From Sphyrna mokarran (taxonomy: Eukaryota), in assembly GCA_024679065.1 (NCBI GenBank), contig JAGIQG010000012.1:54498001-54562000 (forward strand): a stretch of DNA of 64,000 nt. Reading direction: 5' to 3'. Under the pieces are notes generated by a model. That model was not told where the DNA came from, made no database searches, and worked only from the letters and a program-made list of their open reading frames with translations. Below, in pieces: positions 13,050 to 31,858 of the stretch (positions are counted from its first letter, which is position 1; each line of letters begins with the position of its first letter). A program made the translations under genes and the position numbers.

Positions 13050-14015
13050 AAATCAGTCTTCCATATCCCTCCATCCCCATTCTATTCACGTGCCCATCTA
13101 AGTATCTCTTAAATAACTCCAGATTGCCTGCCTCCACCACTTTAATTGACAATGCGTTCCATACCCCTACAACCCTCTGTGTGAAAAACTCCCTCTAGCA
13201 TCTAAATTATACCTTGCCTCCCTCACTTTAAGCCTGTGATCCCACGTGGTATTTGATTCCAACCTAGGAAAAAGCTTACCATTGTTTACTCTATCTATAG
13301 CCTTCATAATCTTGTACACCTCTATTAGATCTCCTCTCAGTCTATGTCTTTCTAAAGAAAACAGCCCTAATTTGCCTAACCCCTCCCTGTAACTCAGACC
13401 TTTCCATACCAGGCAGCATCTGGTAAACCTCCTCTGCACTCTCTCCAGACTCTCCACATCCTTCTGGTAGTAAGGCGATCAGAACTGGAAGCAATATTCC
13501 AAATGAGGTCTAACCAACGTTCTTTACAACTGCAACATTAAAGGCCAGCTCTTGTACTCTATACCCCTTCCTATAAAGGGTAGCATAACATATGCTTTCT
13601 TTGCAACCTTCCCCACCTGCTCTGCCACCTTCAGAGACTTGTGCACCTGAACCCTCAGGTCCCTCTGTGTTTCTATACTCTTAATAGGCCTACCCTTTAT
13701 CATATACTTCCCTCCTACATTCTTTCTCCCGAAATGCATCACCTCACATTTATCAGGATTAAATTCCATCTGCCATCTGTCTGCCCAAGCTACCAGCCTA
13801 TCTATGTCCTGCTGCATCTCCTGACAATGCTCCTCACTATCTGCAAGTCCAGCCATCTTTGTATAGTCTGCAAACTTGCTGATCACACCACTTACTCTCT
13901 CTTCCAAGTCATTTATATATTACAAATAGAAGAGGTCCCAGTACTGAGCCCTGTGGCACACCACTAGTGACTGACCTCCAGCTAGAAAGTCACCCTTCCA
14001 CTATTACTCTCTGCC
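13050..14015 (-). mobile_element. CR1 LINE ORF2 fragment (relatively intact)
   Basis: ISKFADYTKM...QQDIDRLVAWADRWQMEFNPDKCEVMHFG...LERVQRRFTR...LRGDLIEVYKIM. Confidence 0.95.
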
Positions 14016-21718: not shown

Positions 21719-22984
21719 AACCTCTAATGTGCAGTGATTATAATTGTCATTCTGGGAACCGGTGGAAAATTGGCAGCTGTGAATTACACAATTGGATATT
21801 TTTTTTTGCTGCAACTGGTTGAGCTGGGCCTCTCTTGCTCCAGACTCCCAGCCAACTCCCTGATCACACTCTCCCCAATCTCCATGTACCATTCCAGTGT
21901 TAGGAAGTGTTCCTTTGGCTCCTGGAGGCTGATTCCAAATGGTTTTTAATGGGGTTGGGCAGTTGTTTCCTATTGACTCTTTGGCTGTTTAGATTAAGAA
22001 ATCAGCATGCAACATGCCAACAAGGACTGGCTGTTAAATTGTTTTACATTCCTTTTTATTTTTCTCCTAAAATTAATGACGAGAAGATAATGTGGTGTAT
22101 AATAGTTATGTGGAAAGCTACAGGCAAGGATATCCCGTACTTGCAGCTAAACAAATAAAGACAATATGACAACTAGAGGTAATTGCAGGCGGGGGAGGGG
22201 GGGAGGAGTTTGTGGGGATAATCACGGCAAATATTGGAGGATGGGAGGTGCAGAGCAAAACTAATCAAAGGATCATGGTGATTTTCCAAGTAACTGAATG
22301 AAATAAATATTCTCATTCATTAGAAAGAATGAAAGATCAGAAACCTTAAAAATTTCAGTTCATCCCAAAAAATGTAAAAGTGCGAGGACCTTCAAGAACA
22401 ACACCCATCTTAACCCATCGTTGTTAGCTAGAGCAGGCCACAGCATCTCTGTCTGCATTCCCATCCAACCCATCAAGGTCAAAGAGGAAAGTTACTTTTC
22501 TCATATCTTTAGTTCAGCTAGAAGACATTAAGTTTCGAAAAAAAGGGGATTAACATCATTCAAGATCCTTATCCTAGCAGAGGTTGGTGACTCCAAGAGG
22601 GCGTCAAAGGAAACTCAATAGCCGGCATGACCATTGAGGAGATATCCTTAGGGGCATTAAGGGTGAAATTTCCCAGAAGAAACCCAGAAACTCCCCCTTA
22701 TAAACCCCTTTGATGTGTAGCAGATGGGTGGAGGATTCATCTGTGCTCCCCTCAACAAAAATTAAAAGGTCAGAGTTACAATAAACTCAGTGCCACCACA
22801 TTGTGTACTAAATTTCAGTCAGTAGCATATGGACTGTTTTCCTCCTTTTCCAGTCAAGAAATTTCAGAGCCTAAGGGTGGAAATTTTCCTTTCTTTACAC
22901 AGAGTGCTGTCTGAGCTGAGAAAACTGGCCTATAGCTGACAGGCTGTGCTGTTGGCTTTTCTTGCCATATTGTGTAACACTATG

Positions 22985-23690
22985 AGCAGGATTTTCCCAC
23001 TGCACTTGCCCTGAAATCGGAAAATCCTGCTCGAGGTTAACGAACCTTTTCATGGTCTGCCCCTTGCCTGCTACAATTCCCATGATGGGCCAAATGGGAA
23101 AATTCACCTCTATATTCCAAGGAAATCTCCCAATGTGGCCCATATTATCACACTGGCAGGTTGGCATCTAATAGAGACAACAATGTCCACTTAATGGAGA
23201 GCAAAGCTTCTTATTTAAAGGATGCTCTGATCTGCAACAACAAAAAAAATTCCCTCATGGAAAAAGGTGGGCTCACTCCACCTCATGGAGCTCCGCAGAG
23301 GCCCCCCCCCCCCCCCCCACGTCCTCTTCTGCACTGCAAGGTACTGCCCATCGTGTCCCTCTTCTCCGGGGGGCCCCTAGCAGATTCCCCCCACCTGGTT
23401 CCCATTTTTGAAAAGAGGTTTTAAATCGCACCAATGTGACGTCATGTTGGCAAGGGGGAAATTTCAAATGTAGTGGGATCATTTGGCAGGGATGCCTGCT
23501 GAATTATGCTAAAATTTACTGAAATGACCTTCTTGGGTAGGAACCTCGTTATGTCAATGAAGAGGGGTGGGAAGAAATGGCAAATGAGATCTCGCCAGCG
23601 AGATACTCCTTTTCCAAGTCTACTGAGATTTTACGCTCATGTTCTCGTTTCTGCTCAGGACAAACATGGGCACAAAATCACGGCCTAAGT
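22985..23690. mobile_element. Harbinger-type MITE cluster
   Basis: ggattttccc...ggaaaatcctgctcgagg motif shared with 19055-19175 and 42675-42780. Confidence 0.5.
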
Positions 23691-24911
23691 TTTCTTTAAA
23701 CTATTGTGAGAAACAGTGGAACAAACTTCACAAATCAAAACAGAAATCAGGCAGGGAAGCTTCGGCATTTATGCACTGATGCTTTTTAAAGCCGTGAGTC
23801 CAAATTAAAAGTTTAAAGTTTATTTATTTGTGTCACAAGTAGGCTTACATTAATACTGCAATGAAGTTACTGCAAAAATCCCCTAGTTGCCAAACTCAAT
23901 CTTCAGCCAATTTTCAGGGTTTATCTGTCCATCCATTTCGTTCTGTCTCTATTTATCCATCTGTCTGTCTATCTTTTTATCTCTAATATTTATCTCTACA
24001 TGCAATTTCAGACAAGGATGGAAGTTGGGATTGTGGAGCATTGATGGAACAACAAACTCCAATCAAATTTCACAGTGCCCTGAATCTGAGAAATCAAAAT
24101 AACTGTGCGCATATTAATCCTCATTCAGTTTGGCTTTGCACACTGCCACAGGCTGCTCATTTAAAAATCCTTGGTTCAGCCCTGTTAACTGCAGCACACT
24201 CTTCAGGATACAAAATCTTCTGAGAATATAGAGAAGTAGAGCTGTTTTGAGTAATGGAGGTGGCATTGCTGTTTATGTGTTAATCAGCAGGCGCTTGGTA
24301 GAATTTAATAAAATATTACGGTGTTGGGGATGACAATAGGATATTGATATTTACAATATCAGCAGCAACAATAAAAGATCCTATATTTGTTCTCATTCTC
24401 TCTACCTCAATCTTGCACATCTTTTGTTGTTAATACTTGAGGGTATCAGATCATCTTCTATTTTGCTTTTTTCACTCCATCTCAGTCACCTTGGCCCATA
24501 CCATTGAGTTTGAGAGCTACTTTGTGATTGCCCTGAAAAGGCATGCAGCAGTGGCTAAAAATGATGCCACCCCCTACCTTATTTTCTTTCCTCTAGTGTG
24601 GGTGGCATTTGATCTGTCAAGTAGTTAAGGTCAAGTGGGAAGGGAACTCTCAACTCCTCTTCCTGCAACATTAGAGCTCTGAAGTGTTGTGCTGCTAGTT
24701 CAAAGCAGTTTTGTGGTCATATATAGATTGCAGTAATCAAAGTTTTGAACAAATTCTGGCCACAATTACATGCATTCATGCAAATGAGTGAAACCCAATA
24801 TTAACTGTTTAGAGGTCCCATTGTCATGATGCTATAAAAACAAGACATAAAAGCTCAAGTATTCCAATTTTCTTGCATTTCCAAAAAATACACATTCTAC
24901 AAACTCAAGCA

Positions 24912-27693
24912 TGTAAAAGTGGAAGCTTGTTTAATATTGCTCTACCATCATCCTGAAAGGCATAATTAGAGTACACATTGGAACTGATTAAAGTTACAGA
25001 ATCATTGTCTCCTTTTGCATTAACAATATATACAATATAAAATAAATACATTTACACAAATGGACATTTGTCAGAGCACACAGTATGATACACGTCACAA
25101 AAATATACAGTTGATTGTTTACAGATGTGAAGCACAAAGCTTGCCTAGACCTACAGACATGGTTTTTCACTACAGGTTAAACTTCAACTCCTGGTATTTG
25201 TAGCTTTTTTGAAACATTTTTTTTCTGCTTTTAAACTTTGCATGTAAGACTGCCATAAATTGTTTGTAGGCAGGTAAACACAGATGCATAAATAATTTAA
25301 ATACAACCACCAACACCCAACATTCTGTTCTATATAAGAAAAATAGCTGTTTATAATTTTTTCACATTATTTTGAAACTTGTCTTTTTTTTAAAATGCAA
25401 ATAGTGGAATAAATATTTGTTCTGATTGAAATGCAAGTGCAACTGTTGAGGAGTCACACAATCATATTGCCATAATTAAGCAGGAAAAAAGATAATTGTA
25501 AAGAAAAAAAAAGAAAAATTAGATACAGCTTAAAACATAGAACCTTCATTTTAACGATCTCATTTTTGCTGTTCTGAGATTTTGCCGTGGGTTCTAACCA
25601 TAAGCATGCGCAAAATAAATCTTAAATCCTTCCCTTGCACTCCACAGAGCTAAGCTCCTGTTACTCAAAAGCAGCACCTTACTCCCAGGAGTTGGATTTT
25701 TTTTAAAGGGTCGTGCCAGTTTCTTAGTTCCCTATTACAGCTATAAACTTCAAGTTATTGACCACCTGAATGAGCTGCTAATGATGAATAAAGTCTAGAA
25801 TCACAGTACAGTCAATTCTCTACTGAGAAACCACAATCTACTATATAGTCTCGTACGGCTAATGATACACAGTATTTATAGCACAAGGTTGATGTATACC
25901 ATCAACCTTTTTGTCTTTTTTATTTTTTTTGTTCAAAGCACACAATGTAGCAGTAGTTTGGGAAACTTGTCTGCACCAAAAACTTGTAACGACACAAAGC
26001 TGGTTTTAACAACCATTTGAGATGTTTGAACATAGCCATATTTACAGCATTTAAAAATTAGACATTTACCTATTGTTTGGAAATATTCAAATTCTTTTCT
26101 AAGATATACATTGTTATTCTACAATAAACTGTTACACAAAATATCCCTTTTTTAAATTAATGATTTAAATGTGTATTGTCGGAAGAGATATTTGTTTTGT
26201 TTCTTAAACTATTTGTTCTTATTATTAATAGGAGCAATCTTATCACCAGTAAGGAATAGAATACACTATCTCCTGAGGAATTTTACATCCATTACTGTCT
26301 CTAATTCTACCCTGTGTCTAATGCGTACAATCACAAGAATCTAACACCACAATAAGAACAAGACAACAGTCTTCGAATTCAACTAAAATTAGAAGAACAC
26401 AGCAAACATGAAACATTGCAAGCTGAACTACAACATTTTTTTTTGTTTCCAATACATGACCTCAGGTTAGGCTCACAATCTTTGATTACATAAGTGTACA
26501 CAGAAGAGGATGTCACATGGTACAACAGGGAGCAGCTACTAATACTGACATTTGAGTACTTGGTACAGGTTAGCGCTGTCATTTGTTTTAAAATGTAGCA
26601 AATGTAGCCTTTAAGGGGGAGGAGGAAAAACATCTGATTAGTTGCTAAACCAAATTTACACCTTAACAGTCATGTTTTGAATGGTTAATAAATATGCTTG
26701 TAACGTACATTATTTTACATCAGTACCGTATTTCCAAAGTATGCTGGGGCAAGCTAGTGTACAATCTTGTTACATTGGATTCAATTGTCAGATCAACTAG
26801 CCTATCAATAAAGGTGTAATCTAATTGCAATAATGAACTTGAAGCTATGTATTACCTTGTGTTAAAGAAGTTGAGGATTTTGACTGAACTGGCACTCAAC
26901 ATAAATTGCATCCATAAAAAGTATGCACCTTCTCATTCACTATTGCTTAAGATAAATTCACAGATTAATAAAATGGCTGTAGTGGTAAAGCTGGTACAAA
27001 AAACCCATAAACAACATCAACAACAAAGGTTTTAAAAAAAGTTTTGTTTGTTCTTCGTAACTGTCCGTCGTTTTTCCAGCCAGCAAATAAATGCAGTATT
27101 GTTTTTTTTGTTTCAGTATTGCGTGACTGAGTAAAGCTTACTATTCCCTGAAATAGACATAGTTCCTAACCTAAGAAATATCTGGAAGACTTGAAAACAA
27201 TTAAGGAATTAAATGGCTGTAACTGATCTAAGGTGGAAAAAATGCAATGAGAAGAAGCAGCCAATGCAACGCTGCTCCGTTGCCTAATTACAGACCGTTC
27301 ATATGGAACCTAATACTGCATTCAGTCAATGCGCTGTACTGTTAGGTAAAACAGTTGTCAGTCTGAATCCTTTGTTGATGGGGATATTTCTCTTAATATT
27401 AGTTCAGTGGCATCCATATTATGGATTCCCATCCTTTGGCAGGGCTGGCTTCCTTCTCTCTCTTCATTTAGAGACCTCATTAAAAAGTTCAACAGCAAAA
27501 TCTGCATGAAAAAATCCTAGAAGAATGAGAAGTTGAAAGCTGCTTCACAGTCATACTGCTAAATATCAGTGCAGTTTTTTTTCAATTAAACACTACAGTT
27601 AACTTTTTGTCTGGTTCAATTCCTATGCTTCTTCCCTTTGCTGTGGCCTAACCCATTCTGTGTGTTTCCATGGGAAGGCCGAGGTTCCTCTAG
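24912..27693 (-). other. ESRRG: ESRRG 3'UTR (predicted, ~2.8 kb)
   Basis: AU-rich, free of recognisable repeats, directly after the stop. The end is inferred from ATTAAA followed by U/GU-rich sequence. Confidence 0.7.
24930..24935 (-). terminator. Candidate polyadenylation signal ATTAAA
   Basis: Plus strand TTTAAT. The minus-strand sequence downstream is GU/U-rich (TGAGTTTGTAGAATGTGTATTTTTTGG). Confidence 0.6.
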
Positions 27694-27938
27694 TCAGACC
27701 TTGGCCTCCAGCATTTCCAAGAATAGTTTGTGCATGGGAACTTTGCCTTCCAGTTTGATGTTGTAGAAATGCTGCACAGCTTTGGTAGAGGTCTGCCGGA
27801 GAAGAGGGAGAGTCATCAGTAGCTTACCGGCACGGCGTGGATCTTCGCCATGTTGCCCAGCCTCATAGTCCTGCAGAGCCTCATGCAAGACATCTTGCAG
27901 CTTCTGAACAGCCTCAACATCTTCTATGTGCATCGAGT
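27694..27938 (-). CDS. ESRRG: ESRRG last coding exon (LBD C-terminus, AF-2, stop)
   Basis: Translates (D)[80 protein letters not shown], nearly identical to the vertebrate ERR-gamma C-terminus. Acceptor ttgtcttgtAG ends at 27939; TGA at 27696-27694; phase 1 matches the upstream exon. Confidence 0.97.
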
Positions 27939-31588: not shown

Positions 31589-31858
31589 CTGAATTAGCAA
31601 GTGCTATAGCTTTGAGGGTGACAAATTCTTCTTTCTCCAGTTTCATGCTCTTATATTTCTTTACCAGCTGCAGTATCGCGTTATTCAGATCAAGAAGCCC
31701 GGCTAGCTTTGACTGGTCTTCATCCATGATGTAGTCTTCAGCATATACCAGCTCATCCTCAAAAGACAATGACCTGTACACAATCCCCAAGATCAGAATC
31801 TCCATCCAGGCACTCTGGAGGAGGCTCATCTGATCAGCCAGAGATAATGTGGAGAATC
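31589..31858 (-). CDS. ESRRG: ESRRG penultimate coding exon (270 nt, LBD)
   Basis: Translates (G)[89 protein letters not shown](D). Polypyrimidine tract plus AG at 31860-31859, GT donor at 31588-31587. Splices in frame to the last exon (G|AC = Asp). Confidence 0.97.

Follow-up and report, generated by a model that had tools for sequence, protein, structure and literature searches.

A nuclear receptor gene whose stop codon is followed by CUAG raises the question of whether a programmed, C-terminally extended receptor is encoded, or whether an ordinary stop simply leaks a little. Such a stop is found in a 64,000-nucleotide stretch of Sphyrna mokarran DNA (the window), whose minus strand carries the last two coding exons of ESRRG, both with canonical AG/GT signals. 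All coordinates below are those of the window, and all features with a strand lie on its minus strand. The penultimate coding exon (31589–31858), encoding part of the ligand-binding domain, was delimited by its translation and AG/GT signals, and the coding part of the last exon (27697–27938), ending in LEAKV, by translation, protein comparison and splice signals. We take this LEAKV end to be helix 12 (AF-2). A simple motif search of the window above 31.9 kb found no upstream ESRRG exon motif. The last-exon peptide shares 98–99% of its residues with named ERR-gamma records of tetrapods, compared with about 91% at best for ERR2-named records; in addition, one copy of the exon in the database can be matched to the C-terminal end of ERR-gamma ligand-binding domains of solved structure. 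Judged by these protein comparisons, the gene with the UGA-CUAG end is ESRRG.

The UGA at 27694–27696 is a stop of the annotated type; FLEMLEAKV is the exact end of 73 of 121 proteins. The receptor ends at its ligand-binding domain and UGA-CUAG lies directly behind, the sense text being GCC AAG GTC TGA CTA GAG GAA. The CUAG tetranucleotide (27690–27693) is the readthrough-promoting motif as defined previously (PMC4132726). It opens a run of 25 sense codons (27619–27693), the potential readthrough extension LEEPRPSHGNTQNGLGHSKGKKHRN, which is closed by a second in-frame UGA (27616–27618); together with the residue inserted at the first UGA (X), the extension would comprise 26 residues. The first-pass annotation of this DNA had described the AAG GUC UGA CUAG end and the frame open to the second UGA, and its coordinates and frame are exact. 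It had further proposed a readthrough isoform with an F-domain-like tail carrying a nuclear localization signal (NLS). We favor a simpler explanation, with a probability of roughly 0.62: this is an ordinary ESRRG end at which UGA-CUAG leaks slightly, and the 26-residue tail is an unselected by-product.

It had also been conceded at first pass that a 25-codon open stretch can occur by chance, and the counts bear this out. Counted in overlapping windows, which are not independent, 25 open codons follow 733 of 3692 positions in the downstream region (20%) and 16053 of 63716 positions on the minus strand of the window (25%). Basic patches are also present among the 733 open downstream positions: 43 contain at least four K/R in six residues, and 20 contain K[KR]x[KR]. 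In human, 23 genes end in the motif, where 39 would be expected (PMC5868278). UGA-CUAG is thus rare per gene, but it is expected somewhere in any vertebrate genome.

By analogy with published reporter data, slight leakage at the ESRRG UGA-CUAG is likely. All 17 human UGA-CUAG contexts newly tested in one survey were read through, at 1.3–6.7%, whereas a UGA-C control gave 0.7% (PMC5868278), and UGA-CUA by itself gives 1.5% (PMC4132726). A positive PhyloCSF coding signature was reported for just four of the 23 human UGA-CUAG genes (PMC5868278); since all 17 tested contexts leak, the motif predicts leak, not function. A deep mutagenesis study found CU to be essential after the stop, and also that effects outside positions −3 to +4 do not transfer between genes and that upstream and distal context sets the readthrough level (bioRxiv 10.64898/2026.07.14.738498). 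Because context effects generalize so poorly, a figure of 1–3% for ESRRG is a guess, and its level is not closely predictable. Termination in the native context might even be so tight that the extension stays below detectable levels. Single-copy reporters of AQP4, MAPK10 and OPRK1 gave 0.5–1.9%, and context changes can abolish readthrough (bioRxiv 10.64898/2026.07.14.738498), which is in line with this view; the fact that every one of the 17 human contexts exceeded the UGA-C control speaks against it, and we regard it as quite improbable.

Near-cognate tRNAs at UGA are those for Trp, Cys or Arg. ERR-gamma is constitutively active. According to the reading that we prefer, one such tRNA would decode the UGA, and about 1–3% of ribosomes would pass UGA-CUAG and add the hydrophilic 26-residue tail. 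An extended receptor so scarce would barely alter total ERR-gamma activity, even with AF-2 weakened as in VDRx. The context itself may be the ancestral one of jawed vertebrates, UGA-CUA-R, retained within a conserved proximal UTR; one A/G change at +4 would separate the CUAG of the window from tetrapod-type CUAA. Thus, of the isoform proposed at first pass, a low-level leak is reasonable in the light of the reporter data, while a functional tail is not supported by the orthologues, as follows.

The orthologue data are database gene calls in which UGA is read as Trp, so that 3′UTRs are translated in the readthrough frame; an internal Trp in such records may be UGA or UGG. The records are unnamed and partly redundant, and were assigned to classes by diagnostic exon residues common to named records. 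Directly behind the stop, all 21 tetrapod-type ESRRG records have Leu; Lys comes second in 19 of them and Ala third in 17. Two of the records translate one tetrapod-type sequence in different frames; no mismatch occurs over the 55 positions at which they overlap (53 of them fixed), and the sequence thus resolved, which represents one lineage, reads UGA-CUAAA (+1 to +5). Comparison of this sequence with the window revealed that: (i) from +1 to +14, 8 of the 13 resolved positions are identical; (ii) they are followed by 11 of 11 identical positions, the 11-nt block GGCCTTCCCAT (27670–27680), a length reached in 4 of 2000 shuffles, which begins at +14 in the window and at +15 in the tetrapod-type sequence and is therefore out of frame; and (iii) the purine run AAAGGGAA (27632–27639), encoding KGK in the window, begins at +55 and +39, respectively, and is out of frame as well.

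The tetrapod-type tails themselves also differ in frame. The 11-nt block is translated as G[LH]P in 12 of the 21 tails, as A[FL]P in 6 and in the frame of the window in 1, with 2 unassigned. The seven unambiguous tails, those without internal Trp, are 12, 13, 25, 28, 28, 29 and 42 codons long. Neither the frame of the extension (three frames) nor its length (12–42 codons) is conserved among the tetrapod-type records, and the proximal 3′UTR of ESRRG, as far as these translations reveal it, is conserved as nucleotides and not as a reading frame. As the orthologues read homologous downstream nucleotides in different frames, the tail is probably a by-product rather than a conserved regulatory domain. 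The F-domain-like tail with an NLS is therefore not supported: it is contradicted by frame-shifting differences between orthologous extensions, which the first-pass annotation itself had named as refuting, and the teleost esrrga-type genes are without the motif. The NLS-like KGKKHR patch fares no better: two of the three frames of the purine run give KGK, [KR]G[KR] is found in 16 of the 21 tetrapod-type tails, and the KGK(K) patch is, by this comparison, a by-product of translating the purine run.

UGA-CUA is not conserved throughout vertebrates. Leu after the stop, present in 21 of 21 tetrapod-type records, was found in 0 of 12 teleost esrrga-type records, one of whose genes (L003) reads UGA-GGAU; the leaky context is, judged by these records, lost in teleost esrrga-type genes. 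Conservation of UGA-CUA(G), which the first-pass annotation had suggested examining, therefore holds in part: the core is apparently common to tetrapod-type ESRRG and is absent from the teleost esrrga type. A scan of metagenome DNA detected five ERR loci, none of them of the window's type or of the tetrapod ESRRG type; all end in UGA and none in CUAG (CACC, CAGC, GGAU, CCUG, UCAG). It should be mentioned that UGA-C occurs in most ERR-beta/gamma paralogue classes (L001, L002 and L004, with CACC, CAGC and CCUG), where the first residue is mostly His, Gln, Pro or Leu. The exceptions are the esrrga type, with G, and the IKVQGK type, mostly with Ser (UCAG in L005). The sequences suggest that UGA-C is ancestral for the ERR-beta/gamma paralogues.

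The invariant Leu, against 19 and 17 of 21 at the next two codons, means that the UGA-CUA core may be under selection. It can be hypothesized, then, that the leaky stop is ancient and independent of the peptide: UGA-CUA-R would be selected both here and in tetrapods, and any tail behind helix 12 would generate a small pool of weakened receptor. In this case ESRRG would have retained UGA-CUA-R ever since cartilaginous and bony vertebrates diverged, as a rheostat, independent of the tail's sequence, of ERR-gamma as a constitutively active regulator of metabolism, with UGA-CUAA in mammals. The fixation of +1 to +5 as CUAAA in one tetrapod-type sequence agrees with this, as does the recurrence of [KR]G[KR]. 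CUA is, moreover, the universally conserved core of four validated genes (PMC4132726), CUAA was the sole one of 765 MAPK10 variants to outdo CUAG (bioRxiv 10.64898/2026.07.14.738498), and ESRRG does not appear in the human UGA-CUAG survey table (PMC5868278). Several observations weaken the case: CUA lies within a generally conserved proximal UTR and is no outlier there, Leu can be encoded by six codons, of which CUA is established for one tetrapod-type lineage only, the 21 records are phylogenetically redundant, the context is lost in teleost esrrga-type genes, and the supplements on mouse-brain readthrough that were searched do not contain Esrrg. We consider selection of this kind, both as a general explanation and in the form of a rheostat, rather improbable. 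If the leak were selected, ERR-gamma would follow VDR as the second nuclear receptor to have a form dampened by readthrough, and there would be a class of frame-independent readthrough that screens based on CUAG only and on PhyloCSF miss. What the locus offers in this respect is a testable hint at the retention of UGA-CUA on ESRRG across the jawed vertebrates.

A tail like that of the window was found by protein and HMMER searches in just one other sequence, P0122; P0364 is the same gene call with a longer, intron-derived N-terminus. P0122 retains Leu-Glu after the stop (compatible with CUAG), the frame, the length and a basic patch, KGKKRR, and has Trp (TGA or TGG) at the place equivalent to the second UGA. 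Frame and length, which were to be compared according to the first-pass annotation, are thus kept in one close relative and not among the tetrapod-type orthologues. At the protein level, at which synonymous changes are not visible, this single pair differs from the window in 0 of 81 exon codons and in 5 of 25 extension codons, the latter without indel (Fisher p 0.0005 against the exon). Beyond the second stop, 1 of 17 codons is changed and there are 2 indels (p 0.37 against the extension), and in the intron part of P0364, 7 of 18 codons are changed and there are 6 indel steps (24 in all). Constraint on the extension thus exceeds that on the intron but not that on the UTR past the second stop, which is conserved at least as well; this points to constraint at the RNA level.

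The five changes are mostly radical (mean BLOSUM62 −1.0) and no milder than random ones. In a neutral simulation at 10% divergence, 5.2 changes were obtained, and the frame stayed open with UGA or UGG at codon 26 in 61% of runs; frame and second stop were kept in 27–78% of runs at 25–5% divergence. At an intron-like divergence of 20–25%, five or fewer changes in the extension are unlikely (p 0.04–0.004), which counts against the neutral reading. The absence of indels from the extension, when both flanks in P0364 have them, gave p 0.02 if counted by steps and 0.15 if the intron indels are taken as three events (range 0.02–0.18), and the first 8 extension codons are unchanged in P0364 (p 0.12). 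The changes in this single pair are, tentatively, compatible with neutral drift. A search of sequencing runs with 66 sampled words gave 24 rows; in 18 of them, which carry nine organism labels, 91% or more of the words occur, and in two others the fractions are 0.32 and 0.24. As to the 18, these relatives are near-identical and so cannot separate selection of the motif from recent ancestry, and they were not used as evidence.

These data bear on the possibility of a lineage-restricted functional readthrough similar to that of VDR, in which a selected basic tail would alter coactivator binding, localization or stability of ERR-gamma. The complete CUAG motif in the window and the preservation in P0122 of Leu-Glu, frame, length and KGKKRR, with no indel next to an indel-rich intron, are what would be expected of it. 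C-terminal extensions can, in addition, alter nuclear receptors: VDRx requires about 100 times more ligand (PMC5868278), and ERR-beta2, which acquires its F domain by splicing, acts as a dominant negative (PMC4978380). On the other hand, P0122 is the sole independent relative found, its five changes are not conservative, TGG might underlie its Trp at codon 26, and the tail has no PTS1-, CaaX- or PDZ-like end. ERR-gamma, moreover, has an NLS already. The same is true of ERR-beta, in its hinge (PMC4978380). A selected tail is, in our opinion, unlikely.

VDR is the closest analogue of the putative leaky stop of ESRRG. In both cases a nuclear receptor ends with its ligand-binding domain at UGA-CUAG, the extension lies directly behind, and its frame is not conserved across deeper lineages. 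VDRx differs in that readthrough was measured (6.7%) and confirmed by antibody and ribosome profiling for an extension of 67 residues, the ESRRG tail having 26 and being deduced from sequence alone; furthermore, PhyloCSF is positive for VDRx in Old World monkeys, against one relative with neutral-like changes for ESRRG (PMC5868278). AQP4, MAPK10, OPRK1 and OPRL1 share the heptamer with ESRRG, and its first six nucleotides are apparently common to tetrapod-type ESRRG; the last residue is Val in AQP4 and OPRK1 (GUA) as in ESRRG (GUC). In these genes, however, motif, frame and extension length are kept across vertebrates (PMC4132726), and ESRRG lacks both of these defining features of the programmed class, the vertebrate-wide motif and the conserved frame and length. 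It resembles instead the 19 of 23 human UGA-CUAG genes that have a leaky context and no positive PhyloCSF signature; MDH1 and LDHB, which are among the 19, differ from it by a hidden PTS1, none being present at the end of the ESRRG tail (PMC5868278). ERR-beta2 and ERR-beta-delta10 also extend an ERR past the ligand-binding domain, but through primate-specific alternative splicing of ESRRB and not through readthrough (PMC4978380).

The predicted extension peptide is hydrophilic (GRAVY −2.0, net charge +3). BAG6 is specific for hydrophobic tails, and the ESRRG tail may escape hydrophobic-tail surveillance. Judged by the familiar consensus motifs for CaaX, PDZ and NLS sequences, the extension has no CaaX- or PDZ-like end, its last residues being KHRN. 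A PTS1-like end was likewise rejected, the prototype being SKL (PMC4207609) and the tail ending in KHRN in the window and KRRN in P0122. No significant stem-loop, of the kind that stimulates readthrough in SACM1L and ACP2, was detected 3′ of the stop (z −0.49 and −1.38). A predicted 10-bp hairpin at 27645–27680 that begins 14 nt past the stop (−17.7 kcal/mol, z −1.38) was equalled in stability by 18 of 200 shuffles and is not significant. Its 5′ arm is the conserved 11-nt block; in P0122, a change from Asn to Lys probably affects the 3′ arm. An alternative partner for CUUCCC would be the conserved GGGAAG run.

Three other routes would give the extension, or the readthrough, a different meaning: insertion of selenocysteine, splicing at AAG/GT before the stop, or protection from nonsense-mediated decay (NMD). 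An Rfam scan of 22000–27696 contained no SECIS element, with two irrelevant sub-threshold matches, and the selenocysteine route was rejected. As to splicing, AAG/GTCTGA at 27700–27694 resembles a donor, the exon is left exactly after LEAK in four database ERR gene models (P0006, P0087, P0096, P0100), and primate ESRRB acquires F domains by 3′ splicing (PMC4978380); no downstream exon for such a donor was identified in the window. Candidate AATAAA signals at 25924 and 23828, which are unverified, would give a 3′UTR of about 1.8 or 3.9 kb. Readthrough can inhibit NMD, but about 2% readthrough poorly protects longer reporters (PMC5360307), and since readthrough would clear 78 nt of this 1.8–3.9 kb candidate UTR, protection from NMD was rejected too. 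Taken as one explanation, these routes are highly improbable.

We found no paper linking ESRRG or another estrogen-related receptor with readthrough, subscription papers being outside the coverage of the search. As far as they are searchable, the supplements of PMC4207609, PMC4359377, PMC6392083, PMC5868278 and PMC11387191 do not contain ESRRG; a figure for the human ESRRG stop may be present in the remaining files of PMC11387191. Under the preferred reading, ESRRG is a further example of a stop in a leaky context with a tail that is not conserved. It also cautions against taking UGA-CUAG plus a short open frame as evidence for a programmed isoform.

Some further features were observed in the window and in the database. 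About 90 database proteins besides P0002, P0122 and P0386 are calls of UGA as Trp on vertebrate contigs, containing in-frame 3′UTR translations. Such calls are useful for screening readthrough candidates and are also a source of false "extended isoform" records. In the 3′UTR of the window, TGCACTGA is located at 27573–27566, about 120 nt past the stop, in a UTR block that is also recognizable in tetrapod-type tails. By its seed, we take it to be a miR-148/152 8-mer site. A run of 132 N at about 47910–48045 marks an assembly gap. Finally, decayed reverse-transcriptase-like ORF fragments are present at 13919–13170, 9953–9744, 4611–4095 and 57968–57771, presumably remnants of CR1/L2-type LINEs.
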